From Bacilli bacterium (lineage in GTDB: Bacteria > Bacillota_I > Bacilli_A > RF39 > UBA660): 64,000 nt of DNA. The DNA is taken from assembly GCA_017513865.1 (NCBI GenBank), contig JAFWMN010000006.1:107064-171063 (forward strand), written 5' to 3'. The translations under genes were made by a program, and so were the position numbers. Positions 2,619-58,641 of the stretch are shown here, in pieces. The first letter of the stretch is position 1. Each line of letters begins with the position of its first letter. The notes below the pieces were generated by a model that worked only from the letters and a program-made list of their open reading frames with translations, was not told the origin of the DNA and made no database searches.

Positions 2619-4167
2619 TTTAAATAATAACGATAAAAAAACTATTAATATTAATATCTTTATGTCGGTATTGATTGTAGTTGTTTTATCGTTTATTTCT
2701 GTTGGTTATGCTTTATATGGTCAGAATTTAAGTGTGAGTGGTAATATTGGTTTTGGTCTTCAGGGTAAGATTGCGATTACTGATGTTACATTAACTTCAT
2801 CTACTAATGTTAGATCCGACAGTATTCCATCTTTTACTGATGATAGTGTTGATTTTAATTTGACTTTTGAAAAAGCTGCTGGGTCAACAGATCCGAATTA
2901 TCAAGCTGTTTATGAAATTACGATTTCTAATGGAACATTTTATGATTTTGAGTTTAATTTAGCAAATTTTCAACCAATTATAACTAATTCTCATGGAATA
3001 AATGTTGATCCGTCTTTTTTATCTACTTCTTTAAGTGGTATAAATATAGGGGATATGATTCCAGCTGGCGAGGATGTTACTTTTACGTTAACTTTGGATT
3101 TTAGACCTGACGTTGACGATACTTATTCAGTTAGTGGTGATATGGAAACAGAATTGGTAGAAGAACCACATGGGAGTCTTTTGGGATCTGTCCCTGAAGG
3201 TGCGCAAGGTGATTTGAAGGAAAGTTTAGGACATGATATTGTCTCTTTTACAGTAACAGTTATTAATTCTTATCAATCAAGTAGAACTTTTAATATAAAT
3301 ATTGCTGATACGAGTCATTTTCAACTTACTAATTCTGATGGTACTCCGCTTAGCAATTTTACAATAGCTGGAGGAACAACAGACACATATACTTTTTATG
3401 TAAAAAGAGTTAATGGAGCAATTTTTGGTGCTTCAAGTTTTACTACAGGAATTTATCTTTCTTATTCAGAAAATTCTAATGTTCCTTGCGGGAACGTTAC
3501 TTTATTTGTTGATGAAACGCAAATTGATGATACGACACCGCCACAAATTAGTGATGTAACTGCTGTTCAAAATAATGCGACAAGTAGCACAACTACTAAT
3601 GATACGGTTGGTTCAGTTACTGTTTCTTGGAACGGCGAAGATGCTGAATCTGGTGTAAAAAAATACTATGTTATTGTGAAAAATTCTAAAGGATCAACAA
3701 CTTATGAAACTACTGACAACACACCATCTTTAACGATTACGGGGCTTATAGATGACAGTAATTATACTTTCAAGGTTTATGGTGAAAACAACGATAATTA
3801 TAAGCCTAACGATAGTCAAATAGCTGTTGATTCGACAAGTCCTGGTGTTTGTTCAATGTCTACATCTTATTCATTTGATTGGCGTTATACAGTTGCATTT
3901 TCATCTGACACAAATAATATGCGAGAGTTGTCAACCACAGCCGTAAATAGGGGATATAATTATACCGTGACTCTTAGAGCCTCTAATAATTATAATCTTC
4001 CTAGTTCATTAAATTATGTAACCATGGGTGGGAATGAAATTACTTCTACCTCTGGGACAGAAACAGGACATTATAAATATACAAGTAGTAGTGGTTCTTT
4101 TAATGTATATGGGGTTACCGGAGATATTGTATTAAAACTAACACCAACAAGAAGTGGTGGATGTTAA
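2605..4167 (+). CDS. Large secreted protein with a SipW-cognate-type N-terminal signal (…ISVGYALYGQNLSVSG…) and a fibronectin-III-like domain. It is a likely SipW substrate or fibre/adhesin subunit.
   Basis: A basic N-terminus and hydrophobic core are followed by a GYAxY motif resembling the TasA/camelysin class. The FN3-like segment is 'TPPQISDVTAV…VSWNGEDAESGVKKYYVIV…YTFKVYGEN'. The start could be 2596 (GTG), 2599 or 2605; the AAAGAG RBS favours 2605. Confidence 0.6.
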   Translation: MKKINLNNNDKKTININIFMSVLIVVVLSFISVGYALYGQNLSVSGNIGFGLQGKIAITDVTLTSSTNVRSDSIPSFTDDSVDFNLTFEKAAGSTDPNYQAVYEITISNGTFYDFEFNLANFQPIITNSHGINVDPSFLSTSLSGINIGDMIPAGEDVTFTLTLDFRPDVDDTYSVSGDMETELVEEPHGSLLGSVPEGAQGDLKESLGHDIVSFTVTVINSYQSSRTFNINIADTSHFQLTNSDGTPLSNFTIAGGTTDTYTFYVKRVNGAIFGASSFTTGIYLSYSENSNVPCGNVTLFVDETQIDDTTPPQISDVTAVQNNATSSTTTNDTVGSVTVSWNGEDAESGVKKYYVIVKNSKGSTTYETTDNTPSLTITGLIDDSNYTFKVYGENNDNYKPNDSQIAVDSTSPGVCSMSTSYSFDWRYTVAFSSDTNNMRELSTTAVNRGYNYTVTLRASNNYNLPSSLNYVTMGGNEITSTSGTETGHYKYTSSSGSFNVYGVTGDIVLKLTPTRSGGC

Positions 4168-4170: not shown

Positions 4171-4204
4171 AAAACACTATTTTTTATGAATAGTGTTTTT
4201 TTTG
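4171..4204. terminator. Bidirectional rho-independent terminator between convergent genes.
   Basis: A perfect 11-bp inverted repeat (AAAACACTATT / AATAGTGTTTT) has a 7-nt loop and is followed by a T-run on the + strand. Confidence 0.7.
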
Positions 4205-4860
4205 ATAATCAAAAAAGCGGTTATTATAAAGAGAAAAATGCTGAAAATTTGGTTTGAGGAAATTAGTTCTTTAATGTGACTATACCTTAGAAAATCTAAG
4301 GAAAATTTAAGGATTGAAATTAAAAGTAAAGTGATATAAGAAATGTTTTTTTTGTTTTTATTTGTATTACAGAAAAGAAATAAAATAAAAAACACGAAAG
4401 ATTCTAATAACTGTATAGGGAATAGGGGAATATTTAATCCATGAGGGTAGGTTACGCTGAAAGGTCCATTATAAGGAATGCCATAGCAACACCCAACAAA
4501 GAAACATCCAATTTTTCCGAAACTATAAATTAGCGGTAATGAAAGAATTGAATATTTAATTATTTTTTTATCTGAAGGATATATTTTTTCATAAATTAAT
4601 GGTGATATGATAACGCCAATTAATCCCCCATATGAGGAAAGACCACATTCTAAAAACTTTTTTTTAAAGCCACTTACAACAAATGTGTAAGTTTTAGCAG
4701 ACATATAGGTGATAATGAAGAAAAATATAAAAAAAAGTAGGATATTTTTTTTAGATATATTTTCATTTTTTAATGCAAAAAAAACATATAAAATGCCAAT
4801 GATAATTGAGAAGGACATCATTATTTTATAAAAAGGAAAAGGAATGTTATGTATTATCAT
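4177..4860 (-). CDS. Lgt-family (prolipoprotein diacylglyceryl transferase-like) paralog, short at 227 aa, with a mutated signature motif.
   Basis: It is colinear with Lgt (YGGLIGVII aligns with Lgt HGGLIGAIL). The Lgt signature GRWGNFxNxEAHG is replaced by GKIGCFFVGCCYG, and the C-terminal region is truncated. Confidence 0.55.
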   Translation of the reverse strand: MIIHNIPFPFYKIMMSFSIIIGILYVFFALKNENISKKNILLFFIFFFIITYMSAKTYTFVVSGFKKKFLECGLSSYGGLIGVIISPLIYEKIYPSDKKIIKYSILSLPLIYSFGKIGCFFVGCCYGIPYNGPFSVTYPHGLNIPLFPIQLLESFVFFILFLFCNTNKNKKNISYITLLLISILKFSLDFLRYSHIKELISSNQIFSIFLFIITAFLIIKKNTIHKK

Positions 4861-10679: not shown

Positions 10680-11483
10680 ATGAAATCAGTTATTGATTTG
10701 GGTTTTGTTTCTATTCATATTTATTCTTTATGTATTTTAATAGGTGTTTTACTATCTTTTTATTTAATTTTAAAAGAGAGCGAAAAGCATGGCTTTGATA
10801 AAGAAAAAATTTCAGATTTGCTTTTTTATACGATTATTTTTGGAATAATAGGTGCGAGATTATATTATTGTTTATTTAATTTAGATTATTATTTATCTAA
10901 TCCTTTTTCTGTTTTGAAAATATGGGAAGGGGGATTAGCTATACATGGAGGGATTATTGCTGGATTAATTACTATTTTTGTATATGCCAAAAGACATAAA
11001 TTAAACGTTCTTTGGCTTTTAGATTTTATAGTAGTTGGTTTAATAATTGCTCAAGCTATTGGTAGATGGGGAAATTTCTTTAATGGTGAGGCTCATGGGT
11101 CACTTACGACATTGTCTCATTTAAAAGGAATGAATTTACCTAGTTTTATTATTAAAGGAATGAAAATTGATGGAGTTTATTATATCCCAACCTTTTTATA
11201 TGAGTCTTTATGGTGTTTACTAGGGTTTATAATAATGATTTTAGTAAGACATAAAAAGAATATAAAAATAGGATATTTAACTGGTTTTTATTTTATTTGG
11301 TATTCTTTAGAAAGATTTTTTGTTGAAGGAATGCGTACAGATAGTTTAATGTTAGGTTTATTTAAAATCGCGCAAATAATCTCTATTATTATGTTTATAT
11401 GTGGTATTGTTATATTTATATATAGTTTTATTAATTCTTCAAACTATAATAAAAAACTTGAAAGGAATGATAAAAATGACTAA
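10680..11483 (+). CDS. lgt: Prolipoprotein diacylglyceryl transferase.
   Basis: 'LKIWEGGLAIHGGIIAGL' and the Lgt signature 'GRWGNFFNGEAHG' are present, along with 'PTFLYESLW…EGMRTDSLM'. Confidence 0.92.
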   Translation: MKSVIDLGFVSIHIYSLCILIGVLLSFYLILKESEKHGFDKEKISDLLFYTIIFGIIGARLYYCLFNLDYYLSNPFSVLKIWEGGLAIHGGIIAGLITIFVYAKRHKLNVLWLLDFIVVGLIIAQAIGRWGNFFNGEAHGSLTTLSHLKGMNLPSFIIKGMKIDGVYYIPTFLYESLWCLLGFIIMILVRHKKNIKIGYLTGFYFIWYSLERFFVEGMRTDSLMLGLFKIAQIISIIMFICGIVIFIYSFINSSNYNKKLERNDKND

Positions 11484-12420
11484 ACTTGCAGTTTTAGGGG
11501 GAGGAACAGGTCTTAGTATATTACTTAGAGGTCTAAAAAAACTTCCTTTTGATATTTCTGCGATTGTTTCTGTTTGTGATGATGGTAGTAGTACCGGAAG
11601 ACTTAGAAAAGAATTTAATACGCCAGCTGTTGGGGATATTAGAAAAGTTCTTATAAGTTTGTCAGAAAATGAAGAAACTGTTAAAAAATTACTTGATTAT
11701 CGTTTTGATACTTCTAGTGATTTGGATGGACATGCGCTTGGGAATTTATTATTAACTGGAGCAGATCATGTTGCTGGAAATATGTCAGGTGCTATTGAGC
11801 TGATTAATTCTTTACTTAATTTAAAAGGTAAAGTGATCCCGTTAACTGAGGAAAATGTTACCTTGGTAGGCAAAATGTATGGGGGAAAAACTGTTGTTGG
11901 TGAACATAACATAACAGAATCTAAAGAAAAAATAAAAGATGTTTTTTATAAAAAAATGCCTAAAGCAAACGAGGAAGTTTTAGAAGCAATTAAAGAAGCA
12001 GATGCTATTATCCTTAGCATGGGAAGTTTATTTACTAGTATTATTCCAAATTTGATTTGTAAAGATGTAGTTAAAGAAATAGATAAATCGACTGCAAAAA
12101 TAATATATGTTTGTAATATTATGACGCAGCCGGGAGAAACAGATGATTTTTCGGTTACAGATCATGTAAAACTAATAAACAAGTATTTAGGAAAAAGGAA
12201 AGTTGATGCGGTTGTTTTAAATAACGGTAGTATTTCACCAGAAATTATAAAAAAATATGAAACAACGGAACAAAAAGATTTAGTTAAAGTAGACCGTGAA
12301 AAAATAAATAAAATGAATGTTGATATTATTGAAAATGATTATATTTTAATTGAAAACGAAATTATTAGACACAATGCATTAAGGGTTGCTATTGATGTTA
12401 TTTCATATTTGTTAGATTAG
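11476..12420 (+). CDS. yvcK: Gluconeogenesis factor / UPF0052 (YvcK/GlmR, CofD-like).
   Basis: 'MTKLAVLGGGTGLSILLRGLK…VSVCDDGSSTGRLR' is present. It starts with an ATG overlapping the lgt stop, with RBS AAAGGAAT. Confidence 0.88.
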   Translation: MTKLAVLGGGTGLSILLRGLKKLPFDISAIVSVCDDGSSTGRLRKEFNTPAVGDIRKVLISLSENEETVKKLLDYRFDTSSDLDGHALGNLLLTGADHVAGNMSGAIELINSLLNLKGKVIPLTEENVTLVGKMYGGKTVVGEHNITESKEKIKDVFYKKMPKANEEVLEAIKEADAIILSMGSLFTSIIPNLICKDVVKEIDKSTAKIIYVCNIMTQPGETDDFSVTDHVKLINKYLGKRKVDAVVLNNGSISPEIIKKYETTEQKDLVKVDREKINKMNVDIIENDYILIENEIIRHNALRVAIDVISYLLD

Positions 12421-13346: not shown

Positions 13347-13405
13347 TTTTGTTTTTTTTATTGTTAAAAAGTGGCATTTATGTTATCCTTATAATAGGTG
13401 ATAGT

Positions 13406-15229
13406 ATGAAAAAATATGTTAAATTTATATTTATATTTATATTTTTGATGATTGTGGGAATTTATAATGGAAGTGCGTTAAGTGATTCTGTTCATGTTCC
13501 TAATTATGAGAATTATAGATATATTATGGAAACTGAAAGTTTTGCGAACGGATCTAATAGACCGGTAATTTTTACTATTGGCGGTACAGATTATTTTTGT
13601 TCACATCTTCATTTAACTGAACCATGGGATAGAAATTGTTCTAAAATGTCTTTAAATGATAGTAATCCTGGTGATGGTCATTGGTCTCATCCAATGGCAG
13701 CAGCTATTGGTAAATTAGTTCAATATGTTTCTGAACATAAAACAGATGAGAATTTATATTATTTTGAAATCGCTACAAACCAATTCATTAAAAATAAAGG
13801 TGAGGGAGATAATGACAACTCTACAAATGGTGCTGGACCAACATCTACTTATGATAATTTTATGGATCTTATGAATACTGAGTATAATAGGGTTAAGAAT
13901 TTTGCGGCACCAACTATAACAATGACAGCTTTTACCCTTTCTAATAATAACTATACTTCAACTATAACTGTTTCTGGTTGTGAAAGTTGTGAAGTTGCAG
14001 TAAGTCCTAGTAATAAAGGAACATTATCTCATACAAGTGGTAGTAATGGTAATGGAAGTTATACTTTAACTGTTCCAGCAAGTGGTATTACAGCTGGTGC
14101 TAAAACAACATTTACGGTAACAGCTACTGACACTTTAACAGCTAGAATAGCTCGTAACTACAACTGTGGTGAAAACGTTCAAACAATCACACCTTTAGGA
14201 ACTGAAGGATATAGTACTTCTAAAAATGCATCAGCAACAAAAGATATTGAAAGATCTAAAATAATATTTAATAAAAAAGCAGCTGACACTAACGAAGTGC
14301 TTACTGGTGGTTCATTCGAATTTACTAAAAATAATACGGTAGTTGAAACTATTACTGTAGGGAATAAAACTTATCAAGATTTAGCTTTTGGAACTTATTG
14401 TATGGAAGAAAAAGAAGCACCAGAAGGTTATGTTAATGCTAAAGAAAAGAAATGTGTTACTCTTTCTAGTTCTAATCTTAATGCGACAATTACTATTTTT
14501 GATGATTTAACTTCAATTAAAATCAAAAAGATTGACGAAAACACAAAAGAAGCTTTAGAAGGGGCTAAACTAGTAATAGTTGATGAAGATGGTGAAGTTG
14601 TTAGTACAATTAACGATGAAGAATGTTCTTGGACTTCTGACGACGATTATGTATCGTTCTTTGGAATTCCAGTTGGAACATATTATATAAAAGAGCTAGA
14701 AGCCCCAGATGGCTACGAACTTATGCAAAATCAAGTAGAGTTTACAATAAATGAAGATGGATCAGTTGTAACTTCTAAAGAAGAAGATTTATCAGACGAT
14801 TCAATTGTAATTGTTAAGAATAAATTAACTAAAGTTGATATTAGTAAGCAAGACGCGACTACAGGAAAAGAACTTCCAGGAGCAAAATTACAAATTTTAG
14901 ATGCTGATGGCAATGTGGTAGAAGAGTGGACTTCTACAGATACTCCACACCGCGTTGAAGGGCTTAAAGCAGGACACTATTATTTAAAAGAAACAATTGC
15001 TCCTGCCGGTTATGAAAAAACAGAAACAACGGTAGAATTTGTAATATATTCTGATGGTTCTACAAAAGAAGTAGTTATGAAAAACGAACCAATAAAAGTT
15101 AAGGTTCCATCAACTGCTAAAAATATTTCGCTTATTTTAGCAGCAGGCGGCATTATATTTGTAGTTGTTGCCGGAACAATATTCCTTTATCAAGAAGGAA
15201 TAATAAAATCATCTAAGAATAAAAAATAA
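13406..15229 (+). CDS. Cell-wall-anchored surface adhesin with three SpaA/CnaB-type (prealbumin-like) repeats and a non-canonical sorting signal.
   Basis: A signal peptide starts at MKKYVKFIFIF. The repeats carry 'GTYYIKELEAPDGY', 'GHYYLKETIAPAGY' and 'GTYCMEEKEAPEGY'. The C-terminus is 'KVPSTAKN' plus a hydrophobic segment and a KSSKNKK tail. Confidence 0.75.
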   Translation: MKKYVKFIFIFIFLMIVGIYNGSALSDSVHVPNYENYRYIMETESFANGSNRPVIFTIGGTDYFCSHLHLTEPWDRNCSKMSLNDSNPGDGHWSHPMAAAIGKLVQYVSEHKTDENLYYFEIATNQFIKNKGEGDNDNSTNGAGPTSTYDNFMDLMNTEYNRVKNFAAPTITMTAFTLSNNNYTSTITVSGCESCEVAVSPSNKGTLSHTSGSNGNGSYTLTVPASGITAGAKTTFTVTATDTLTARIARNYNCGENVQTITPLGTEGYSTSKNASATKDIERSKIIFNKKAADTNEVLTGGSFEFTKNNTVVETITVGNKTYQDLAFGTYCMEEKEAPEGYVNAKEKKCVTLSSSNLNATITIFDDLTSIKIKKIDENTKEALEGAKLVIVDEDGEVVSTINDEECSWTSDDDYVSFFGIPVGTYYIKELEAPDGYELMQNQVEFTINEDGSVVTSKEEDLSDDSIVIVKNKLTKVDISKQDATTGKELPGAKLQILDADGNVVEEWTSTDTPHRVEGLKAGHYYLKETIAPAGYEKTETTVEFVIYSDGSTKEVVMKNEPIKVKVPSTAKNISLILAAGGIIFVVVAGTIFLYQEGIIKSSKNKK

Positions 15230-21600: not shown

Positions 21601-22122
21601 ATGAAAAAATGTGTAATATTATTAATAATTATTAGTTTGTTTTATATATCTATATCTAGCTTTTTTTCTAAGAAACTTGCGGTACCTAGCGATGCTTTAA
21701 GGATAAGAATAATTCCTAATAGTAATTCTAACTATGATCAATTAGTTAAAGGAAAAGTTAAAGATAAGTTAGAAGTTACTCTCTATGATTTACTTAGAAA
21801 TGCTTCTAGTAGTGCAGAAGCCCGAAAAATTATAATTAATAATCTTGATTTGGTTGATAAAGATGTTTCCAAAATATTGTCTGGTGAAAATTATGGTTAT
21901 AAGATTAAATATGGTTATAATTATTTTCCAATGAAAAGATATAAAGGAATAAAATATGAAGAAGGTTATTATGAGTCTTTACTTGTTACCTTAGGAAAGG
22001 GTGAAGGGGATAATTGGTGGTGTGTTTTGTTTCCGCCTCTTTGTTTAATTGAGGCTGAAGAAAATACAGAAATTGAATATAAATCTATGGTGAAAGAGTT
22101 GTTAGAAAAATATTTGTCTTAA
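21601..22122 (+). CDS. spoIIR: Stage II sporulation protein R.
   Basis: It has a signal/TM anchor, 'ALRIRIIPNSNS', and the SpoIIR hallmark 'GEGDNWWCVLFPPLC'. Confidence 0.8.
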   Translation: MKKCVILLIIISLFYISISSFFSKKLAVPSDALRIRIIPNSNSNYDQLVKGKVKDKLEVTLYDLLRNASSSAEARKIIINNLDLVDKDVSKILSGENYGYKIKYGYNYFPMKRYKGIKYEEGYYESLLVTLGKGEGDNWWCVLFPPLCLIEAEENTEIEYKSMVKELLEKYLS

Positions 22123-24730: not shown

Positions 24731-24814
24731 TTTTTAAAAAAATGTTTGCTACAATATATTCGCTTATGAATTTCTATGGCTTGATTTTTAAGTCATGGCG
24801 GAAGGAGAGATAAT

Positions 24815-41365: not shown

Positions 41366-42514
41366 GTGAGAAGACTTAAACGAAATAGATTTAAAAATCA
41401 AAAAAATATATTAATAATTGCTGTATTAGGTCTTTTTTCTGTATTTACGGTTGGCTATGCAGCTTTTCAAACTAATATTAGTCTAACGGCTAAAGGTAAT
41501 GTATCACCAACCGCAACGTATACAGTAGATGATTTAAAAGAGCTTGTTACAGTTACTGGTGATGGACTATATACGGATTCTGATGAGCAAGGTAGATATG
41601 TTTATAAAGGAGCAAGTCCTAATAATTATTTATCTTTAAATGGAGAAACATGGAGGATAATGAGTATTGAATCAGATGATACTTTAAAAATAATAAGAGA
41701 AAATTCAGTTGGAAACGTTCTTTTTGATCCAGGAAGAGCTTCTGTAATATCCGGCATAACGGCAAGTAATTCAGACGTGGGAACAAGGTATTCATCTTCT
41801 TCCTCTGATTATTGTTATGCTTCCTCATTTAACTTGGGATGTAATGTATGGGGCAGTAAAGACACAATGGCAGATTCTGGTGGGTCATTATTGCGTAATA
41901 CTCAAGGTGGTGCCAAGATTAAAAGGAGTGTAACTGATACAGTTACATATAATCTTCCGGATGATGAAGCTTATGTAAATGTTTACTTAAATGGTGGAAC
42001 TTATGCTGGTGTTACAGTCCCTGGATGGTATAGCACTTGGTCTAATAGTTTGAGTAATGTTGTTAAAAGTTATATATCAATTCATCTACACAATGTTGGT
42101 TTGGTTTCAAATACGAGTGGGCAACTTACAGCCACAGATATAGTTCAAGAACATACTTATACTTGGTGGGGAATTGTAGGTCTTATGAATGCTTCTGATT
42201 ATGTAAGGGCCAGTTCTAATTCCGCTTGTACTGGTGTTTATGCTTATGCAAATAATTCATCATGTTATAATAATAGTTCTTCACATAACTATTTAATGAA
42301 ATCGACAACCCAGTGGACAATAGCGCCCCTTTCTGGAGCTATACATCGTCCATGGGCAACTAATTCATCAAATCTAAGTTTTTTCAATGCTTCCAACGCA
42401 TATAGTGTTCGTCCGGTTCTTTATTTGTATGAGGGTGTTTTATTAAAAGGTGAGGGAACAATTTCAAAAATGTATCAAATTGCTAATACGGAAGTTTTTA
42501 TGCCAATTGCTTAA
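41366..42514 (+). CDS. Secreted Ser/Asn/Thr-rich protein with a SipW-cognate-type signal peptide (…FTVGYAAFQTNISLTAKG…).
   Basis: Its N-terminal motif is nearly identical to that of the 2605 protein. The C-terminal 'TQWTIAP…AYSVRPVLYL' is reminiscent of DUF1566/Lcl-like domains, though that is recall only. Confidence 0.6.
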   Translation: MRRLKRNRFKNQKNILIIAVLGLFSVFTVGYAAFQTNISLTAKGNVSPTATYTVDDLKELVTVTGDGLYTDSDEQGRYVYKGASPNNYLSLNGETWRIMSIESDDTLKIIRENSVGNVLFDPGRASVISGITASNSDVGTRYSSSSSDYCYASSFNLGCNVWGSKDTMADSGGSLLRNTQGGAKIKRSVTDTVTYNLPDDEAYVNVYLNGGTYAGVTVPGWYSTWSNSLSNVVKSYISIHLHNVGLVSNTSGQLTATDIVQEHTYTWWGIVGLMNASDYVRASSNSACTGVYAYANNSSCYNNSSSHNYLMKSTTQWTIAPLSGAIHRPWATNSSNLSFFNASNAYSVRPVLYLYEGVLLKGEGTISKMYQIANTEVFMPIA

Positions 42515-42599: not shown

Positions 42600-43352
42600 A
42601 TGAAAGCTTTAATAACAGGTGCGAGTAGTGGACTTGGAGCAGATATGGCTAGAGTATTAGTCGAAGAAGGCTATGAAGTAATACTAGTTGCTAGAAGAAA
42701 AGGGAAATTGGAAAAGTTAGCTAAAGAACTTGGCGACAATGCTAAAATAATTGTTAAAGATATTTCTAGTACTTATAACTGTGTGGAACTTTATAATGAA
42801 GTTAAGAATGAAGATATCGATATTTTAATTAATAATGCTGGTTTTGGATTATGCGGATTTTTTAATGAAACTAATTTAGATAAGGAACTAGATATGATTG
42901 ATTTAAATATTAAATCACTTCATACTTTAACCAAATTATTTTTAAAAGATTTTGTAAAAAAGGATCAAGGCTATATTTTAAATGTAGGTAGTAGTGCAGG
43001 GTTTATGCCTGGACCTTTAATGACTACTTATTATTCTACTAAAAACTATGTTGTTAGCTTTACATCAGCTTTATATGAGGAACTTAGAAGACTTGGTAGT
43101 AATGTGTCTATTAGCTGTCTATGCCCTGGACCAGTTGATACTGAATTTAATAAAGTAGCTAGAGTTAAATTTGCAGTTAAGGCTATGGAAAGTAATAAAG
43201 TCGCAAGATATGCCATTAAAAAAATGTTTGATGAAAAATTAATAATAGTTCCTGGTTTTGGAATGAAAGCGGCTTTGTTTTTTAGTAAGTTTATGTCTAG
43301 AAAAAGTTTACTTAAAATGACTTATAAGATTCAAGAAAAGAAGACAAAATAA
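42600..43352 (+). CDS. Short-chain dehydrogenase/reductase (SDR) family oxidoreductase.
   Basis: It has the 'ITGASSGLG' cofactor motif, 'NNAG' and a catalytic YxxxK (YSTKNYV → Y…K). Confidence 0.85.
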   Translation: MKALITGASSGLGADMARVLVEEGYEVILVARRKGKLEKLAKELGDNAKIIVKDISSTYNCVELYNEVKNEDIDILINNAGFGLCGFFNETNLDKELDMIDLNIKSLHTLTKLFLKDFVKKDQGYILNVGSSAGFMPGPLMTTYYSTKNYVVSFTSALYEELRRLGSNVSISCLCPGPVDTEFNKVARVKFAVKAMESNKVARYAIKKMFDEKLIIVPGFGMKAALFFSKFMSRKSLLKMTYKIQEKKTK

Positions 43353-43373
43353 ATATAATATTTTGAGGTGTTT

Positions 43374-44540
43374 ATGAAAAAGATATTAGATTATGAAGAG
43401 ATGAATGATTTACTTTTATCTTTAGATAAAAGTATAATAGAAAAATGTGAGCCTATTGGATATAGTAATTTTGGTTATCCAATTGATCATTATAAATATG
43501 GTCATGGGGATAATCACGTTATTATTACAGCAGGTACTCATGGGGCAGAATTAATAACGAATGTTTTTGTTGTTAGATTTATGGAAATGCTTTCTAAAAA
43601 GGAAATTAATATTGATTCTGATCTTTATACAATCCACTTTGTTCCTTTTGTAAATCCTGAAGGAACAAAGATTGTAACGACAGCTATACGAAGTTTAATT
43701 CCAAGAGATATCAGTGAAGATCAAGAACAAACATACTGTTTAGCTTATTATAGAAATGCTTATATTGAAGGGGAGTATTCTAAACAAGGAGATAAAGATA
43801 TTAAACTGCACCAATGGATGTTCAGACATGCTACGCCTGATTTAATAGGTGGTGAACTAGGTAAAAGTGTTTTTAATATAATTAACAAATATAACTTACC
43901 TAAAGGCGTGATGATAAACTGGTCTAGCAATGGTAGAGGAGTAGATTTAAATAGTAATATTGAACTTGGTGAATTTGTAGATCAGGTTTCTAATGGTGAA
44001 GTAATATATGACACTTTGCATATGAATACCTTAAGACGTGATTTGCCTGGTCCAAAAGGAAGGCCATTTTATGAAGTGAAAGGCGATATTGAACCAGAAA
44101 ATGAGGCGTTATTTAAGTTTTATAATGAAATTAATGATAATCATAATTTAATAGGTTCTTTTATTTATCATAGCTGCGGTAATTTAGTTTATTATTTGGG
44201 TGATGAAAACAAGAAAAATCCATGGAATGAAAATTATGGTAAAAAAGAAATTGAAAATACTTTATATGTGGCTTCAAAATATGCGGAAATTACTAATTAT
44301 AAATTAGACGGAACAGAACCTTATACAACAATGGATACAAAATTAAAAACATTTTTCCCAGTTACTTTGCTTGTTGAACTTGGAGGTGTAAGGGCAACTC
44401 CACTGTCACAATTTATGGATTTAGATATACCTGGAAGTGGTGATGGTTTTAAAAATATTTATTCCAAGGTAATTAACGATAATGCCAAAGCCATTATTGA
44501 AACAATTCCTTATATGTTAGAAATTAATAAAACATCTTAA
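43374..44540 (+). CDS. M14-family zinc carboxypeptidase (gamma-D-glutamyl-diamino acid peptidase-like).
   Basis: 'TAGTHGAELIT' (HxxE zinc ligands) and 'FVPFVNPEG' are present. There is no signal peptide. Confidence 0.7.
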   Translation: MKKILDYEEMNDLLLSLDKSIIEKCEPIGYSNFGYPIDHYKYGHGDNHVIITAGTHGAELITNVFVVRFMEMLSKKEINIDSDLYTIHFVPFVNPEGTKIVTTAIRSLIPRDISEDQEQTYCLAYYRNAYIEGEYSKQGDKDIKLHQWMFRHATPDLIGGELGKSVFNIINKYNLPKGVMINWSSNGRGVDLNSNIELGEFVDQVSNGEVIYDTLHMNTLRRDLPGPKGRPFYEVKGDIEPENEALFKFYNEINDNHNLIGSFIYHSCGNLVYYLGDENKKNPWNENYGKKEIENTLYVASKYAEITNYKLDGTEPYTTMDTKLKTFFPVTLLVELGGVRATPLSQFMDLDIPGSGDGFKNIYSKVINDNAKAIIETIPYMLEINKTS

Positions 44541-44606
44541 ATAAGGTGTTTTTTTCTTGTAAAAAACTAATAATTTTATTATAATAATAAATCAAGGTGT
44601 GATTAT

Positions 44607-45383
44607 ATGAATGCAGTTGATATTGAAAATTTAAATTTTAGTTATAATGATACTTTAGTGTTTAATGATTTAAGCTTAAGTATTGATGAAAAATCTATCA
44701 CTACTATTTTAGGCAAAGGTTCCATTGGCAAAAGTACTTTATTTAAAATATTATGTGGTGATTTAAAATATGATGGCAATATTTTAGTTTTAAATAAATC
44801 TATTAAATACAATTTAGAAAAAGGATATTTGGGATTCATATCGACTGATTCATATAGTTTTAAAAAAAGAATAGTTAAAGACGAAATCTTATATTGTTTA
44901 GAAAATAAAGGTATAGCTTTTTCAAAGATTGATGCTGAATTAAAAAGAATTTCTAAAAAGGTTTGTCTTCAAAATATATTAGATTTTAAAATAAGTGATT
45001 TAAATGTTAAAGAAAAAAATTTATTAATGGTGGCTATTCAAATTATTAATAAGCCGAAAATCATAATAATAGATAATGTTTTTGATTATTTAGATAATGA
45101 AAAGAAAACTATTTGGAAAGAACTTATAAGATTAAATAGAAAAGGAACTACAATAGTAAATATAACAAATAACCCCGAGGAATGTCTGTTTGGTAAAGAT
45201 ATTATTATTTTGAATGATTCAGTTTTATATTTTAAGACTAAAGATATTTTAGAAGAAGATTTTTTAAATAATGATTTAGATGTTCCTTTTATAATTTCTT
45301 TATCTAACAAATTAAAATTTTATAATTTACTTGATAAGAATTATTTGGATATAGATAAGTTGGTCGATGTTTTATGGCAATAG
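44607..45383 (+). CDS. ECF/ABC-type ATPase subunit with degenerate catalytic motifs (likely a non-catalytic partner).
   Basis: Walker A is LGKGSIGKST. The signature is replaced by ISDLNVKEKN, Walker B reads IIIIDNVFDYLD (no Glu), and the H-loop His is replaced (ITNNPEE). Confidence 0.65.
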   Translation: MNAVDIENLNFSYNDTLVFNDLSLSIDEKSITTILGKGSIGKSTLFKILCGDLKYDGNILVLNKSIKYNLEKGYLGFISTDSYSFKKRIVKDEILYCLENKGIAFSKIDAELKRISKKVCLQNILDFKISDLNVKEKNLLMVAIQIINKPKIIIIDNVFDYLDNEKKTIWKELIRLNRKGTTIVNITNNPEECLFGKDIIILNDSVLYFKTKDILEEDFLNNDLDVPFIISLSNKLKFYNLLDKNYLDIDKLVDVLWQ

Positions 45384-46153
45384 TATTTGACGATGTTACA
45401 TATTATGATGAAATATATGATGCTTCTTTTAATATAGAAAGTGGTAAAATAACCGGTATTGTTGGTAGTAGTAATTCTGGCAAAAGTACAATAGTTGATT
45501 TAATAAGTGGTTTAATATATCCTGAGGATGATTCAATAATATATGATGATGTGAGGACAGATAATATTGGGGTATTATTTCAAGATATTAATGATCAATT
45601 TTTCTACGATAGTATTATTAAAGATTTTTACTTAATTTTAAAAAGACATCATATAAAAAATGCAGAGAAGAAAATGGTTGATTCTTTAAAAATGGTAGGG
45701 TTAGACAGTTCTTATTTATATCTTTCACCATTTGAACTCAGTCATAGTGAGCAAAAGAAGGTTTCTTTAGCCTTAATTCTTTCTTTTAATCCTAAAGTTA
45801 TTGTTTTGGATGAACCATTTTTAGGGCTTGATTATAAAGACAAGATGTGTTTTATAAATCTTATAAGAATGATGAAAATAAGATATGGTAAAACTATTGT
45901 TGTTGCTAGCAGGGATACAAATATTATTCATAGTTTTGCGGATAGTGTTATTTTATTAAATGAAGGTAGAGTTATAAAAACAGGCGACAAATATGAAGTT
46001 TTATCTGACAATAAGCTTTTAAATAAGTGTAATTTGTCGGTTCCTGATATTATAGGTTTTTCTAATTTGGTTCGAGATAAAAAGGGAATCAATATTGGAT
46101 ATCGTGATGATATAAATGATTTAGCTAAAGATATATATCGAAATTTAAGGTAA
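45374..46153 (+). CDS. ECF/ABC-type ATPase subunit (EcfA-like) with a variant signature.
   Basis: Walker A is GSSNSGKST, the Q-loop is LFQD, the signature is LSHSEQKKV, Walker B is VIVLDEPFLGLD, and the H-loop reads ASRDTN. It sits in the rplQ-ecfA-ecfA'-(ecfT)-truA position. Confidence 0.7.
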   Translation: MAIVFDDVTYYDEIYDASFNIESGKITGIVGSSNSGKSTIVDLISGLIYPEDDSIIYDDVRTDNIGVLFQDINDQFFYDSIIKDFYLILKRHHIKNAEKKMVDSLKMVGLDSSYLYLSPFELSHSEQKKVSLALILSFNPKVIVLDEPFLGLDYKDKMCFINLIRMMKIRYGKTIVVASRDTNIIHSFADSVILLNEGRVIKTGDKYEVLSDNKLLNKCNLSVPDIIGFSNLVRDKKGINIGYRDDINDLAKDIYRNLR

Positions 46154-46189
46154 TTTGTGTTACAATATAGCTAATGGAAGGAGAATATT

Positions 46190-46933
46190 ATGAGATATTT
46201 AATGACATTTTCTTATGATGGATCTAGATATAAAGGTTATCAAAAACAACCTGAAGAAAAAACGATTCAAGGAGAAATAGAAAAAGCTTTGGAAACTATA
46301 AATAGTAATGTGCCCGTTACTATTTATGCCTCTGGAAGAACGGATGCGGGAGTTCATGCTTATAATCAAAAAGCACATTTTGATTTAGAAAATAAGCAAC
46401 TTACTCCAGATAAAATAAAAGATTCATTAAATAGTTTGCTTCCAAAAGATATTTATATTAAAAATATAGAAATTGTCTCTGATGAGTTTCACGCCAGATA
46501 CAATGTTAAAGCTAAGGAATATATTTATGTAATAAATATGGGTGAGTATAATCCAATTGAAAAAGACTATGTTTTTCAGTATAATAAGCAATTAGATGTT
46601 GTTGAGATGGAAAGAGCTTTAAAGTATTTAGAAGGCACACATGATTTTAAATCATTCGCAAAAGCTGATGATGAAAGAGAGGATTATACAAGGACAATAG
46701 TTCAAACTCATTTGCTTAGAGATTTAAAAAATGTAAATAAATTAACAATTAGCTTTTTAGGAACTGGTTTTTTGCGTCATCAAATAAGAAATATGATGGG
46801 AATTTTACTTGAAATTGGTGAAGGCAAAAGAAAAAGTGAAGAAATCATTGAAATATTAGCGGCTAGAGATAGAACTAAGGCTGGAATAGCTGCCAATCCT
46901 GAAGGATTATATCTTAAAGATGTTTTATATTAA
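46190..46933 (+). CDS. truA: tRNA pseudouridine(38-40) synthase.
   Basis: 'RYLMTFSYDGSRYKGYQKQP…ASGRTDAGVHAYNQKAHFD' is present. Confidence 0.93.
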   Translation: MRYLMTFSYDGSRYKGYQKQPEEKTIQGEIEKALETINSNVPVTIYASGRTDAGVHAYNQKAHFDLENKQLTPDKIKDSLNSLLPKDIYIKNIEIVSDEFHARYNVKAKEYIYVINMGEYNPIEKDYVFQYNKQLDVVEMERALKYLEGTHDFKSFAKADDEREDYTRTIVQTHLLRDLKNVNKLTISFLGTGFLRHQIRNMMGILLEIGEGKRKSEEIIEILAARDRTKAGIAANPEGLYLKDVLY

Positions 46934-46958
46934 AGTACATGTATTGTACTTTTTTATT
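46932..46958 (+). terminator. Rho-independent terminator after truA.
   Basis: AAGTACA-tgtat-TGTACTT plus T5. Confidence 0.55.
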
Positions 46959-47003
46959 TTTGTAAATATTAGTGATAAAAATGCATAAAATTTATTATAT
47001 TTG

Positions 47004-47111
47004 TTGACTTTTTAAGGGGTTTTTAATATAATTAATACTGGTACATTTATTTATCCCACATGAGTGAGCCCCTGGGAAGGCTTACTAATGTAAAGGAGAA
47101 AGGAAAAAATT
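47004..47111 (+). promoter_or_regulatory. Perfect-consensus sigma-A promoter (TTGACT, 17-nt spacer, TATAAT) plus an ~80-nt leader preceding rplM. It is a candidate L13 ribosomal-protein leader.
   Basis: The promoter is read directly from the sequence. The leader contains GAGCCCCTGGGAAGGCTTAC-type paired segments. Its position matches the Rfam L13_leader context in Firmicutes, but it was not covariance-tested. Confidence 0.45.
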
Positions 47112-47543
47112 ATGAAAACATACATGCAAAGGAAAGAAGACGTCCAAAGAAATTGGTATGTTGTTGACGCTGAAGGACAAACTTTAGGTCGTCTAGCAAC
47201 AAAAGTAGCTAATGTTTTAAGAGGAAAACATAAACCTACTTATACACCACATGTCGATGGCGGAGATTTTGTTATTGTTATTAATGCTAGCAAAGTAGTT
47301 TTAACTGGAAACAAATTAAATGATAAAATTTATTACAACCATAGTAGATATACTGGTGGTCTTAGAGAAAGAACTGCCAAAGAAATGGTTGAAAATTATC
47401 CGGTTGAAATGATTGAAAGAGCAGTTAAAGGAATGCTTCCAAAAGGAAGACTTGGAAGACAAATGTATAAAAAGTTATTTGTATATGCAGAAGGGAATCA
47501 TCCACATAGTGCACAAAAACCAAGTGCATTAGAGGTTAAATAG
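47112..47543 (+). CDS. rplM: 50S ribosomal protein L13.
   Basis: '[45 protein letters not shown]' is present. Confidence 0.95.
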
Positions 47544-47552
47544 GAGGTTTAA

Positions 47553-47972
47553 ATGGCAGAAGTTAGAAAATTTTATGGAACTGGTAGAAGAAAAGCTTCT
47601 ATCGCTAAAGTTACATTAGTTGCTCCAGGAACTGGAAAAATTACTGTTAATGGTAGAGATGTTAGAGAATTTATGCCATATGAAACTAATGTTATGGATT
47701 TAATGCAACCTTTAGTTGCGACAAATAACGAAAAAACATTTGATGTAGAAGTTAAGGTTAATGGTGGAGGATTTACTGGCCAAACCGGTGCTATTCGTTT
47801 AGGAATAACTAGAGCTTTACTTGAATATGATAAAGATAACGAAGCAAAGGAAGACAGTTATCGTAAAACTTTAAAAAGAGCTGGTTTTGTTACTCGTGAT
47901 CCTAGAGTTAAGGAAAGAAAGAAACCTGGACTTAAAGGTGCACGTAGAGCTCCACAATTTAGTAAGAGATAA
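47553..47972 (+). CDS. rpsI: 30S ribosomal protein S9.
   Basis: '[13 protein letters not shown]…[19 protein letters not shown]…[25 protein letters not shown]' is present. Confidence 0.95.
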
Positions 47973-49782: not shown

Positions 49783-50238
49783 ATGAAAAAGATATTTATA
49801 TATTATAGTTTAAGTGGTAATGGTGATTTTGTTGCTTCCTACTTAAAAGAAAAAGGCTTTGATATTAGAAAAGTAATATCTAGTGATAAGATGCCCCAGA
49901 ATACTTTTTTAAGAATTATGACTGGTGGTTTTTTGGCAGGAATTGGTCATAAATCAAAACTAATTAATTTTGATAATGATATAAGGGATTATGATGAGAT
50001 AATAATTGGTTCACCTATTTGGAATGGTAGACTTTCTTGTCCTATTAATTCAGTATTAGATAATCTTGATTTAAACAACAAAAGATTAACTTTTATATTA
50101 TATAGTGGTTCTGGCGAGGCGCCCAAAGTAAATGAAAAATTGTCTCAGAAATTTCCCCAATCTAAAATTATTCATTTAAAAGAACCAAAAAGTAACATAG
50201 AAAACATGAAAACAATTTTTAATGAGGAGGACATATGA
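49783..50238 (+). CDS. Flavodoxin-like fold protein (Flavodoxin_4-type).
   Basis: 'KIFIYYSLSGNGDF' and 'IIIGSPIWNG' FMN-binding-like motifs are present. Confidence 0.55.
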   Translation: MKKIFIYYSLSGNGDFVASYLKEKGFDIRKVISSDKMPQNTFLRIMTGGFLAGIGHKSKLINFDNDIRDYDEIIIGSPIWNGRLSCPINSVLDNLDLNNKRLTFILYSGSGEAPKVNEKLSQKFPQSKIIHLKEPKSNIENMKTIFNEEDI

Positions 50239-51323
50239 ATAAAATTGATATTTTAAAATTTAATAATGAAAAAAAGAATATGGTGTATGGACCTTATTCA
50301 ATATTAGTGGCTTTATCAATGCTTGATGAAGGAGCTACGGAGGCTACTAAAGAAAGTTTAGATTTGTTTTTAGGAAATATTCCTATAAATAAATATAATA
50401 ATATTGAAAATGTTTTGTCAGTAGCTAATAAAATGTATATTAAAGATGATATAGCGAAAGATATAAACGAATCTTATAAAAATGTTTTAAGTGACAAGTA
50501 TAATGCTGAAATTGAAATTAATGATTTTAGCGATGAGTTTGTTATGAATAATTGGATTAACAATAAAACTTTCGGGCAGATAAAAAATATTGTTACTAAA
50601 GATGCTCTTTTAAATAATAATTTATTCTTAATTAATACTACGGCGATCGATATGGAATGGCAAGCAGAAATAAATGGTAGTTCTGTTAATGGCGGAATAT
50701 TTAACAATGGTTCAGAAGTAGAGGCAAGTTATATTTATGGTTTTACAAAGAATATGGCTTCTTATTATGAGAATGACGAGGTTTTATCTTTAGGTCTTAA
50801 TTTAAAAAAATATGATGATAATGATTATGAATTTGTGGCTATTCAACCTAAAGGTGTTGAACTTAGTGAGTATATAAATAATTTAAGTGACAATAAAGTA
50901 AATAATATTCTTGCAAATTTGAAATCTTTGTTAGACGAACCAAGAAATGTAGATATAAGTATTCCTAAATTTTCTTTTAATTATAGTTTGAATTGTTTAA
51001 GTACTTTTAAAAATATGGGTTTAGAAAATGTTTTTGAAAATGCCCATTTTGGCAAAATTGGAGATCTTCCAACACTTAATTTAGATGTTCTTCATAAAAC
51101 TAATATCGATTTTTCTGAGGTTGGTTTAAAAGCCGCAAGTGCAACAGTAGTATTATTATTTGAAGGTGCTTATTTCGATCCAAATGAAAGACTAATTATT
51201 GAAATAAACAAACCATTTATGTTTGTTATAAGAGAAAAGAATAAAAACGATATTTTGTTTATGGGTACTGTTTATAATCCTGTTTTATGGGCTGATGATT
51301 CAAAAAACTATGCTTATAAATAA
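50235..51323 (+). CDS. Serpin-family serine protease inhibitor (intracellular, no signal peptide).
   Basis: It has the 'YGPYSILVALSMLDEGATEATKESL' serpin N-terminal helix, a hinge/RCL 'EVGLKAASATVVLL', and the C-terminal 'KPFMFVIRE…ILFMGTVYNP'. A GAGGAGG RBS is present, and the start overlaps the flavodoxin stop (ATGA). Confidence 0.75.
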   Translation: MNKIDILKFNNEKKNMVYGPYSILVALSMLDEGATEATKESLDLFLGNIPINKYNNIENVLSVANKMYIKDDIAKDINESYKNVLSDKYNAEIEINDFSDEFVMNNWINNKTFGQIKNIVTKDALLNNNLFLINTTAIDMEWQAEINGSSVNGGIFNNGSEVEASYIYGFTKNMASYYENDEVLSLGLNLKKYDDNDYEFVAIQPKGVELSEYINNLSDNKVNNILANLKSLLDEPRNVDISIPKFSFNYSLNCLSTFKNMGLENVFENAHFGKIGDLPTLNLDVLHKTNIDFSEVGLKAASATVVLLFEGAYFDPNERLIIEINKPFMFVIREKNKNDILFMGTVYNPVLWADDSKNYAYK

Positions 51324-53807: not shown

Positions 53808-54707
53808 ATGAAAAAAATTGTTTTTGCAGTACTATTATCCCTTTTTGTTTTTACAAAGCCCGTTTTAGCTGAAGAAACAACAATAACGTATAATAAGTTG
53901 CAAGGAATTGCTTATAACCAGAAAATAGGCAACGAATTAAAATCGAATATAGTAACTTTTTTCCAAATGAAAAATCGAATTGCTTACTGTATTGAGCCAG
54001 GTGTGGAAATAAATGAAAGGTATTATGATATTGGCTATGATTGGAATGTGACTAATTTGTCTAGTGAATTGAAAGAAGAAATAGAAAAAATAGGATATTA
54101 TGGCTATGAATATCCCGGGCATAATAATAGTTATTATTATATTGCAGCTCAAGAGTTGATTTGGAAAGCTGTAAGACCAGATATCGAAGTGACATGGACT
54201 ACTGAAAAAAATTTAGGTGGGTCAATTATTGATATCAGTAAAGAGAAAAATGAAATAATGGATTTAGTTAATAATCATTCTTTAGTTCCAAGTTTTGCAG
54301 ATCAAATGTTTATTGATTATACGGGCAAAGAAATAATTTTAAAAGATGAAAATAATGTTCTAGATTATTATGAAGTTTCTGATAGTAACAATCATGCAAT
54401 TATTAGAGATGGTAATGTGTTAAAAATAAAGCTCAACGAAAAAAAAGTAGATGATGAAGAAATATTTTTGACCCGAAAATATTATGATAAGGAACCATTA
54501 TTAGTTTATAGTAGAGGAAATTCACAAAAATTAGCTGCTCTTAGAATTACAATGGATAGAAGATCTAGTTTCACTATTGGAAATAAAGAAGAACCAGAAG
54601 AAATTATAGAAGTTCCTGATACTGGGATTGATATTAATTTAGGGGAGTCAATATTTATGACTGTCTTAGGCTTAGGAATGATTATTAGTGTTTTTAAAAT
54701 TAATTAA
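53808..54707 (+). CDS. Sortase-anchored surface protein with a putative thioester (TQXA-like) domain and a VPDTG sorting signal.
   Basis: A signal peptide is present. 'AYCIEPG' fits the TED Cys motif [YFL]C-phi-[DNE], and 'IAAQELIWKA' fits the Gln motif phi-Q-x-phi-phi-W. The C-terminus is 'VPDTG' plus a hydrophobic segment and a 'KIN' tail. Confidence 0.55.
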   Translation: MKKIVFAVLLSLFVFTKPVLAEETTITYNKLQGIAYNQKIGNELKSNIVTFFQMKNRIAYCIEPGVEINERYYDIGYDWNVTNLSSELKEEIEKIGYYGYEYPGHNNSYYYIAAQELIWKAVRPDIEVTWTTEKNLGGSIIDISKEKNEIMDLVNNHSLVPSFADQMFIDYTGKEIILKDENNVLDYYEVSDSNNHAIIRDGNVLKIKLNEKKVDDEEIFLTRKYYDKEPLLVYSRGNSQKLAALRITMDRRSSFTIGNKEEPEEIIEVPDTGIDINLGESIFMTVLGLGMIISVFKIN

Positions 54708-55239
54708 ATTTTTATCATTTGTATTTTTGTTTTTTTCATTTAGTCTATGTAATTATAATGAAAACAGATTAAATAATAAAGTAGATGAATATATAAGTCA
54801 CAATTATTTAAACGAAAAAGTTTCAGCAGAGCCATCTAAACCGATTACTTTAAGATCTAATCAAAGTATTTATATTCCTAAAATTAATTTAGAGAAAAAT
54901 TTATATAGCATTAATTCTAAACTTAATACAGTTAATAAGAATATTCAAATATTAAAAAATTCTGATATGCCGGATAAAGAAAACGGTAATTTTGTATTAG
55001 CCGCACATAGTGGGAATAGTTCTGTTTCTTATTTTCATAATTTATATAAACTTGATATCGGTGATGAGGTAATAATAAAATATAATAATCATAAATATAT
55101 TTATGCTGTGGATAAAAAATATGAGGTAATTAAAACAGGTAAAGTATCAATTAAAAGGGATAAAAACAAAAATTCAATAACGTTAATAACTTGTAAGGAA
55201 AAAGACAAGCAATTAGTTGTTATTGGCTATTTAACTTAA
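54688..55239 (+). CDS. Sortase (small, class B/D-like) transpeptidase.
   Basis: It has an N-terminal TM anchor, a 'LAAHSG' His motif and the 'TLITC' catalytic Cys motif. A GTG start overlaps the substrate gene's 3' end. Confidence 0.8.
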   Translation: MFLKLIKFLSFVFLFFSFSLCNYNENRLNNKVDEYISHNYLNEKVSAEPSKPITLRSNQSIYIPKINLEKNLYSINSKLNTVNKNIQILKNSDMPDKENGNFVLAAHSGNSSVSYFHNLYKLDIGDEVIIKYNNHKYIYAVDKKYEVIKTGKVSIKRDKNKNSITLITCKEKDKQLVVIGYLT

Positions 55240-58565: not shown

Positions 58566-58641
58566 AGGGGAATAGTTCAGCTGGTAGAACGTCGGTCTCC
58601 AAAACCGAATGTCGTGGGTTCAAATCCTGCTTCCCCTGCCA
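58566..58641 (+). tRNA. tRNA-Trp (anticodon CCA).
   Basis: The cloverleaf has acceptor AGGGGAA/TTCCCCT, an anticodon loop CTCCAAA, a T-loop TTCAAAT and an encoded 3' CCA. It is 76 nt long. Confidence 0.9.

Follow-up and report, generated by a model that had tools for sequence, protein, structure and literature searches.

A diverged EcfA1/EcfA2 ATPase pair kept under purifying selection in an operon that has lost ecfT

The window analysed here is a stretch of 64,000 nucleotides of contig JAFWMN010000006.1 from a Bacilli bacterium (assembly GCA_017513865.1). It carries two ATP-binding cassette (ABC) ATPase genes, termed A1 and A2 in the following, which by descent, fold and synteny are diverged orthologues of EcfA1 and EcfA2, the ATPase subunits of transporters of the energy-coupling factor (ECF) type. 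The gene for EcfT, the transmembrane (T) component, has been cleanly deleted from the ancestral operon, and several catalytic motifs of the ATPases have been replaced. Nevertheless, the pair is intact and under purifying selection. The explanation that is favoured here, with slightly better than even confidence, is that A1 and A2 form a non-hydrolysing pseudo-ATPase heterodimer that binds nucleotide and is kept for a role independent of EcfT.

Identity and fold of A1 and A2

A1 (44607..45383, forward strand) encodes the EcfA1-derived subunit and A2 (45374..46153, forward strand) the EcfA2-derived one. A first interpretation of the locus, the sequence-only reading, had placed open reading frames (ORFs) of 258 and 259 aa at 44607-46153, and both are indeed found there. 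The NCBIfam family that matches A1 best is TIGR04520 (ECF_ATPase_1), with 99.3 bits against a curated cutoff of 315. For A2 it is TIGR04521 (ECF_ATPase_2), with 164.1 bits against a curated cutoff of 330, so that both scores lie below the cutoff of their own family. Sequence searches of the PDB return full-length matches to EcfA1/EcfA2 chains, the best for A2 being the EcfA2 chain 4mki_B (E 1.8e-30).

The same can be observed at the level of structure. The AlphaFold2 (AF2) models of A1 and A2 have a predicted local distance difference test score (pLDDT) of 93.6 and 92.6, respectively. In Foldseek the A1 model is matched best by the EcfA1 chains 6zg3_F and 8bms_A (TMq 0.82-0.85) and the A2 model by the EcfA2 chains 4mki_B and 8bms_B (TMq 0.87-0.89). 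The C-terminal helical domain, which serves A-A' dimerisation in group II modules, is present as two helices in each AF2 model and is included in the full-length Foldseek alignments. Its motifs PF..LS.KLKFY...LVD.LW and GYRDDINDL.KDIYR are nearly invariant in the family. Both proteins are short, as had been remarked from the sequence: the canonical relatives of the same clade measure 268 and 283 aa, which makes A1 10 and A2 24 residues shorter. An identity as anti-phage defence ATPases was also considered and was rejected, as the PADLOC models give weak generic ABC similarity (27-59 bits) that stays under the ECF scores.

Loss of ecfT from the operon

The pair holds the position of the ecf operon of Bacilli, after the alpha operon and before truA-rplM-rpsI (46190..47972, forward strand), which is the downstream remainder of the ancestral operon. 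The truA gene was identified by TIGR00071 (207 bits) and starts at 46190. The sequence-only reading located the genes in the ecf slot downstream of rplQ. The ancestral slot before truA is confirmed, but the pair does not follow rplQ directly: the upstream order is rpoA, rplQ and then a 382-aa exported protein, a short-chain dehydrogenase/reductase (SDR) and an M14-type peptidase, so that three unrelated genes separate rplQ from A1.

The stop of A1 and the start of A2 overlap by 10 nt, ATGGCAATAG (45374..45383, forward strand), an arrangement that indicates translational coupling. The identical overlap occurs in 9 of the 9 loci compared, EcfT-bearing and T-less alike. In the EcfT-bearing relatives, A2 is followed by a CbiQ gene of 250-252 aa that overlaps truA. 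In the window, this position is taken by a spacer of 36 nt (46154..46189, forward strand), whose only content is the truA ribosome-binding site. The adjacent T component (EcfT, Pfam CbiQ PF02361) of an A-A'-T module is therefore missing.

Nor was it found elsewhere in the window or its flanks. Searches of the 64-kb window with the EcfT proteins of the clade, by tblastn and by profile hidden Markov model (HMM), found none (best E 0.75). A Pfam scan of the window ORFs with at least three predicted transmembrane (TM) segments gave no CbiQ or S-component family; the ORFs scanned correspond to Lgt (twice), a holin-like protein, MntP, a VTT-domain protein, a Zn-peptidase and a signal-peptidase-like protein, while the ninth ORF is SecY. 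The precomputed Pfam annotation of the 10 kb past each window end is likewise without CbiQ or S-component families. The earlier description of an EcfA-type pair with truA next and without EcfT is thereby borne out for the window and 10 kb on either side. A substitute T component among the genes between rplQ and A1 of the T-less loci was considered and rejected, since all of these proteins have 0-1 TM segments.

Catalytic motifs of A1 and A2

The motif states were read from alignments to canonical relatives, and all coordinates in this section refer to the forward strand. In A1, Walker A is intact (GKGSIGKST, G36-T44; 44712..44738), with Gly36, Gly41, Lys42 and Thr44 invariant across 31-34 family members. 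Walker B (IIIID-N; 45060..45077) keeps Asp156, which is invariant in the aligned T-less family, while the catalytic Glu has been substituted by Asn157. This D-N pair is found in 19 of 20 members. The signature position reads LNVKE and not LSGGQ (45000..45014), and the H-loop position (45168..45170) is occupied by Asn188 instead of His. Within the T-less family, Asn occupies the H-loop position in clusters P0002-P0020 as well as in the window. P0001, the representative of another cluster at 90% identity, matches the A1 of the window in all residues but one, and this one lies at the former H-loop His, where it has Gln in place of Asn188.

The sequence-only reading had already recognised that LSGGQ, the Walker-B Glu and the H-loop His are missing from A1; in addition, the protein has lost its Q-helix and the Gln of the Q-loop. 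At the position S79-F85 (S-TDSYSF; 44841..44861), which aligns to the canonical VFE-NPDNQF, the Gln of the Q-loop is replaced by Ser/Thr, and the Q-helix T-D-S-Y-S-F retains the final Phe only. The Q-helix, X-P-D/E-X-Q-Phi directly after the Q-loop, has been described as a feature found only in ECF ATPases, without which ECF transporters are not active (PMC6828968).

A2 has preserved more of its catalytic equipment. Its Walker A (GSSNSGKST, G31-T39; 45464..45490) is intact in the window, and so is Walker B (VIVLD-E; 45797..45814). The Q-loop Gln70 is kept, and the Q-helix D-I-N-D-Q-F has kept its Gln-Phe, with Pro replaced by Ile. The signature position, however, reads LSHSE and not LSGGQ (45737..45751), where the consensus of the subgroup is LS[LH]SE and EcfT-bearing relatives have LSxGE. 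The H-loop position (45911..45913) is Arg180 instead of His. Among the 19 subgroup members this position is Arg in 10 and Lys in 9, whereas 41 of 56 long relatives (at least 275 aa) have His. These states agree with what had been stated for A2 from the sequence, namely a kept Walker A and B, a degenerate signature and no H-loop His. For neither protein does the alignment to canonical relatives restore the catalytic residues.

The erosion of A2 differs between members of the subgroup. The P-loop Lys37, Gln70 and Asp146 are shared by 17-19 of 19 sequences and Glu147 by 13 of 19; in the other 6 this Walker-B Glu has become Asp. The P-loop Gly before the Lys (Gly36 in the window) is lost in 4 of 19, namely in P0123 (GNMDSCKDT), P0125 (GATDSFKGT), P0130 and P0132, and in two further loci, L091 and L096, the P-loop is deleted. 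The acidic residues of the coupling groove have been retained in both proteins: Asp92-Glu93 in A1, with Glu93 invariant in the 15-sequence close family, and Asp84 in A2, where 15 of 19 members have Asp or Glu.

Each composite ATP site pairs the P-loop side of one subunit with the signature of the other, and for this reason neither of the two sites is canonical. Of the features of a catalytically competent ABC ATPase, the pair has retained Walker A in both subunits and a complete Walker B in A2, and has lost the signature and the H-loop His in both subunits and the Walker-B Glu in A1.

Selection on the pair

The closest orthologous locus, L098 (GCA_964553605.1), shares 76% identity with the window in A1 and 83% in A2, compared to 98% in SDR and 96% in TruA. 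The ratio of nonsynonymous to synonymous substitution rates (dN/dS, omega) between the two loci was determined by NG86 with bootstrap. It amounts to 0.205 for A1 (95% confidence interval 0.13-0.29) and 0.101 for A2 (0.06-0.17), while the neighbouring genes give 0.02 (SDR), 0.04 (truA) and 0.03 (rpoA). Within A1, omega is 0.13 in the P-loop half, 0.17 in the C-terminal domain and 0.29 in the helical subdomain, which is the least constrained region. Both genes are thus under purifying selection.

Clustered at 90% identity, the intact orthologues make up at least 20 groups for A1 and at least 19 for A2, with identities to the window down to 47-49%. In a neutral simulation with the base composition of the window, 0.2-0.75% of the ORFs were still open after 0.1 substitutions per site and 0 of 2000 at 0.2 or more. 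This closure at 0.1-0.2 substitutions per site is to be compared with an observed synonymous divergence (dS) of 0.7-1.0. The best-conserved parts are the P-loop half of A1, the C-terminal domains of both proteins and the 10-nt overlap. Furthermore, the residues that have replaced the catalytic ones are fixed and not random (D-N and Asn in A1, Arg/Lys in A2). By this reading, selection maintains the fold, the co-expression, the dimerisation domains and the P-loop and Walker-B Asp of A1, but not hydrolysis.

At the same time, the constraint on A1 and A2 is clearly relaxed relative to the EcfT-bearing relatives. Between the T-less window and L098, dN is about 20 times as high in A1 as in SDR; in the T-bearing pair L088-L099, for which dS is saturated, the corresponding ratio is 0.72. 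The A1 gene has a GC content of 21.1%, the lowest in the locus, while the canonical A1 of L088 has 26.5% at the same overall GC. As the GC content at third codon positions of A1 is similar to that of its neighbours, the shift lies in the amino-acid composition. A further sign of relaxation is that A2 varies at catalytic positions between close relatives, namely at the P-loop Gly and the Walker-B Glu. A decaying module, one of the two alternatives put forward in the sequence-only reading, does not hold in the sense of pseudogenisation, given the intact ORFs in many diverged lineages and a dN/dS of 0.10-0.21, even though the constraint is relaxed.

Relatives and the order of the losses

Relatives were collected by homologue searches and by inspection of their contigs, and the clade consists of uncultured metagenome-assembled genomes (MAGs) labelled 'Bacilli bacterium'. 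They form a series that runs from canonical to T-less loci. At the canonical end, L088 has an A1 with LSGGQ, D-E and His, an A2 of 283 aa with LSNGE, D-E and His, and an EcfT of 252 aa. In L095, A1 is degenerate in the signature only, next to an A2 of 281 aa and EcfT. L094 (GCA_963633925.1) combines a fully degenerate A1 with an A2 of 278 aa, in which the H-loop His has been substituted by Met, and still contains an EcfT of 250 aa. The window, L098 and L085 have a degenerate A1 and a short A2 with an intact P-loop, and EcfT is absent at the locus. The same combination of degenerate A1, short A2 and absent EcfT is found in L097 (contigs up to 1.36 Mb). In L091, which also has a degenerate A1 and no EcfT at the locus, the P-loop of A2 has been deleted. 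Finally, L096 has a degenerate A1 and an A2 without P-loop, and its ecfT slot is filled by an ORF of 173 aa with 4 TM segments.

The latter ORF (3381-3902 of L096) may be a remnant of EcfT, perhaps truncated and without the coupling helices. Its alignment to EcfT by hhalign covers 42 columns at the N-terminus (P 6e-4, 28% probability), and hmmsearch gives no match.

A tree was built from SDR, TruA, RplM and RpsI (782 columns, four linked genes) by neighbour joining only. It places the T-bearing L094 together with the T-less L091 and L097 (100% bootstrap), while the window falls with L098 and L085 in another clade (77%). The T-less loci are therefore split around a T-bearing one, which requires two or more independent losses of ecfT, with A1 and A2 retained each time. 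Because L094, with its degenerate A1 and its EcfT, groups with the T-less L091 and L097, the inactivation of A1 predates the loss of ecfT.

In the module of L094 (6001-8379 of L094), the fully degenerate A1 and an apparently intact EcfT accompany an A2 whose P-loop, GGPGSSKST, departs from the consensus and whose H-loop residue is Met. On its motifs, this may be an ECF module without any canonical ATP site.

Degenerate A1 proteins are not restricted to these loci. A HMMER search with the degenerate-A1 profile was evaluated for its best 150 representatives at 50% identity; 120 of them have a single domain (200-300 aa). Of these 120, 63 have no catalytic Glu, no H-loop His and no S-G-G core in the signature, and 9 are canonical; most of the 70 of the 120 that were listed keep the P-loop. 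The series of loci also shows asymmetric ECF modules with a dead A1 to be common in the clade.

Proposed role and alternative explanations

The favoured explanation can be laid out as follows. A1 and A2 are vertical descendants of the ATPase genes of a shared (group II) ECF module for micronutrient uptake, still in the ancestral slot. The two proteins would be made in a 1:1 ratio through the conserved translational overlap of 10 nt, and their C-terminal helical domains would still hold them together. Since the P-loop and the Walker-B Asp are kept and Asn is found at the positions of both the catalytic Glu and the H-loop His, A1 would bind ATP but not hydrolyse it, similar to an engineered Glu-to-Gln trap mutant. 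A2 is eroded to a variable extent across the family. With the EcfT scaffold missing from the operon, the resulting soluble heterodimer would no longer power S-component transport. Its role could be that of an ATP-dependent clamp or sensor acting on a partner in the former coupling groove, where Glu93 of A1 and Asp84 of A2 have been retained. An EcfT-independent role is considered most likely because ecfT has been lost repeatedly while the ATPase pair persisted. The second alternative of the sequence-only reading, a repurposed non-transport ABC dimer, is the better supported of its two, with the repurposing itself deduced and the loss of ecfT observed.

A broader proposal can be made with less confidence, somewhat short of even. 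Dead EcfA1/EcfA2 heterodimers may be widespread in uncultured low-GC Bacilli and may have a role, such as nucleotide sensing, clamping or scaffolding, that needs neither EcfT nor hydrolysis and that predates the loss of ecfT. Such a role, if already present alongside EcfT, would account for the repeated loss of ecfT from loci in which the two ATPases were retained every time.

Several points weigh against the pseudo-ATPase explanation. The genome was covered over about 84 kb, and an ecfT or other CbiQ-family gene, as well as S-component genes, may lie elsewhere. The residues that face the arginines of the EcfT coupling helices (Glu93 in A1, Asp84 in A2) and the Gln-Phe of the A2 Q-helix have been retained, so something may still dock there, either a T component from another part of the genome or a new partner. 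With its P-loop, its Q-loop Gln and its catalytic Glu, the A2 of the window may also support slow hydrolysis at one site. The pair of L094 is equally degenerate beside an apparently intact EcfT, and degeneracy alone is therefore no proof of lost transport. Lastly, the dS values are high (0.7-1.5), and the tree derives from four linked genes by neighbour joining only.

These same observations lend some weight to an explanation in which the pair still drives ECF transporters, with the T component (EcfT or another CbiQ-family protein) and the S components encoded elsewhere in the genome and with catalytic residues that work although non-canonical, or an A2 site that hydrolyses very slowly. The conserved groove residues and Q-helix Gln-Phe, the Walker A, Q-loop and Walker-B Asp-Glu of A2, the precedent of L094 and the 84 kb inspected all fit such a motor. 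It is considered unlikely nonetheless. Both signatures and both H-loop histidines are lost, and so is the Q-helix of A1, reported as essential for ECF transport (PMC6828968). In addition, sister T-less lineages have an A2 without P-loop, and ecfT has disappeared from the operon at least twice independently. A search with the EcfT profile points in the same direction, although weakly: among the best 120 of 969 matches, none was placed on a contig with the length of those that carry T-less pairs (190379, 131415, 87645, 73024 and 1358538), and only the T component of L094 itself (P0242) and one other at 60% identity resemble the L094 protein.

In a second alternative, the pair would be an asymmetric but active ATPase, in which A2 hydrolyses at its own site, A1 has a purely structural or regulatory function, comparable to heterodimeric ABC exporters in which one site is degenerate, and the energy is delivered to a different, non-homologous partner. 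This would agree with the strong conservation of Lys37, Gln70 and Asp146 and the more frequent than not Glu147 in A2, and degenerate-site biology is well established in other ABC heterodimers (PMC7756269). ABC dimers that act on soluble partners exist as well, for example PhnK/PhnL, which are among the structural matches of A2. However, the P-loop site of A2 requires the signature of A1, which is LNVKE here, and the H-loop His of A2, which is Arg or Lys here. The changes of the P-loop Gly (4 of 19) and of the Glu to Asp (6 of 19), the P-loop deletions in L091 and L096 and an operon in which no candidate partner is conserved likewise speak against it. We find this alternative quite improbable, slightly more so than the transporter motor.

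That the genes are functionless relics heading for deletion, with ORFs open by chance, would suit the faster divergence of A1 and A2 from L098 compared to SDR and TruA, the low GC content of A1 and the eroded catalytic motifs, but it is largely refuted and hardly credible in view of the low omega (0.10-0.21, bootstrap upper bounds 0.17-0.29), the early closure of simulated neutral ORFs, the intact orthologues at 47-49% identity, the fixed substitutes and the conserved overlap and C-terminal motifs.

Comparison with known systems

The closest known systems are the EcfA1/EcfA2 pairs of group II (5JSZ, 6ZG3, 4HUQ, 4MKI, 4HLU). The pair of the window resembles these over the full length in sequence and structure, including the C-terminal dimerisation helices, and shares with them the gene order, the 10-nt overlap, the slot before truA-rplM-rpsI, Walker A in both subunits and the acidic groove residue. 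It differs from them in having no adjacent EcfT, in scoring far under the HMM cutoffs, in lacking the signatures and the H-loop His and in the shorter length of both proteins; its A1 is additionally without catalytic Glu, Q-loop Gln and Q-helix.

SufC in SufBCD and PhnK/PhnL on the C-P lyase (7Z15/7Z16) are permease-free ABC dimers in which the face of the coupling groove binds another protein. In contrast to the pair of the window, their catalytic motifs are preserved and their operons encode the known partners, and the analogy is one of function only.

In heterodimeric ABC transporters with one degenerate site (TM287/288, TmrAB, TAP1/2 and CFTR), the degenerate site binds ATP but hardly hydrolyses it (PMC7756269). 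They share with the pair of the window a subunit in which the Walker-B Glu is replaced by a non-acidic residue and the H-loop His is missing, together with a partner whose signature is non-canonical. These transporters, however, keep one consensus site and their transmembrane domains, whereas neither site is canonical in the window and no membrane partner is encoded alongside. A further parallel is offered by 8BMS ('solitary ECF module 2EQ', ATP-bound closed state), whose engineered Glu-to-Gln trap is mimicked by the natural Glu-to-Asn change of A1. Unlike A1 and A2, this laboratory mutant retains EcfT, the signature motifs and the H-loop histidines. In the literature, which was covered in part, EcfA pairs that are T-less or doubly degenerate were not found described, and this is no proof of their absence.

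The A-A'-T unit is regarded as obligate for ECF modules, which are also being pursued as targets for antibiotics. A lineage that has dropped the T component and the catalytic residues, with the ATPase pair still under selection, would imply a second, transport-independent function of EcfA proteins. It can be seen as a natural experiment on the capabilities of a doubly degenerate ABC dimer. The series, in which A1 is first canonical with T, then dead with T and finally dead without T, provides ready comparison sets for biochemistry. For genome annotation, it follows that degenerate ecfA genes in T-less loci are no basis for inferring ECF-dependent vitamin uptake.

Gene neighbourhood and other features of the window

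Upstream of A1, a promoter-like element TTGTAA-17-TATAAT (44557-44585, forward strand; 10 of 12 matches) was obtained from a consensus scan only, and the scan for promoters and terminators was uninformative in this AT-rich DNA. A putative Shine-Dalgarno sequence AAGGTG (44594-44599, forward strand) was read from the sequence. The Rfam scan found no riboswitch or leader near the A1/A2 locus; in the whole window it matched only an L31-Firmicutes ribosomal-protein leader (24774-24807; 35 bits, just above the threshold) and one tRNA (58566-58638).

The SDR and M14-type peptidase genes (42600..44540, forward strand) make up the immediate upstream context. The SDR gene (42600-43352) lies directly upstream of the ecf genes, EcfT-bearing or not, wherever that stretch was recovered (which excludes L096). 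SDR is 60-98% identical across the loci of the clade, a conservation far above that of A1 or A2. The gene of the M14-type (MpaA-like) peptidase (43368-44540) separates SDR from A1 in the window and in three more T-less lineages (L098, L091 and L097). It is not present in the T-less L085, nor in the EcfT-bearing loci, and L097 adds a VanY-type peptidase at this place. The M14 peptidase was considered as an obligate new partner of the pair and rejected, as it is not universal (L085 is without it). Between rplQ and SDR, the gene at 41366-42514 encodes the 382-aa protein, which has a single TM or signal segment at its N-terminus and matches no family of Pfam or NCBIfam. Its orthologue in L098 measures 537 aa at 64% identity, which marks it as a fast-evolving exported protein inside the ribosomal super-operon.

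Downstream, a bacterial serpin gene (50235-51323, 362 aa, Pfam Serpin) is 77% identical in L098, with a dN/dS of 0.17. There are two paralogues of Lgt (prolipoprotein diacylglyceryl transferase), at 4177-4860 (reverse strand) and 10680-11483 (forward strand), the first of which is shorter and scores much lower (87 versus 255 bits). A surface-protein/sortase set is spread over 419-4167, 13349-15229 and 54688-55239, with a sortase gene further downstream; its members are an 8-TM protein (weak signal-peptidase S26/S24 match), a DUF5305 protein, an fn3-like protein and a 626-aa protein with SpaA-type domains. A SpoIIR homologue at 21601-22122 suggests that the organism is probably an endospore former, though the related genomes are small (contigs of 1.1-1.4 Mb).

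Among the relatives, the sample labels XIEF21-1 and STEW19-1 (L001, L085 and L086) resemble those of ruminant gastrointestinal MAG studies; by their names only, these would suggest a rumen or gut habitat. In L097, an IS605 OrfB/TnpB (Cas12f-like) gene (11121-12104) has been inserted directly after rpsI.

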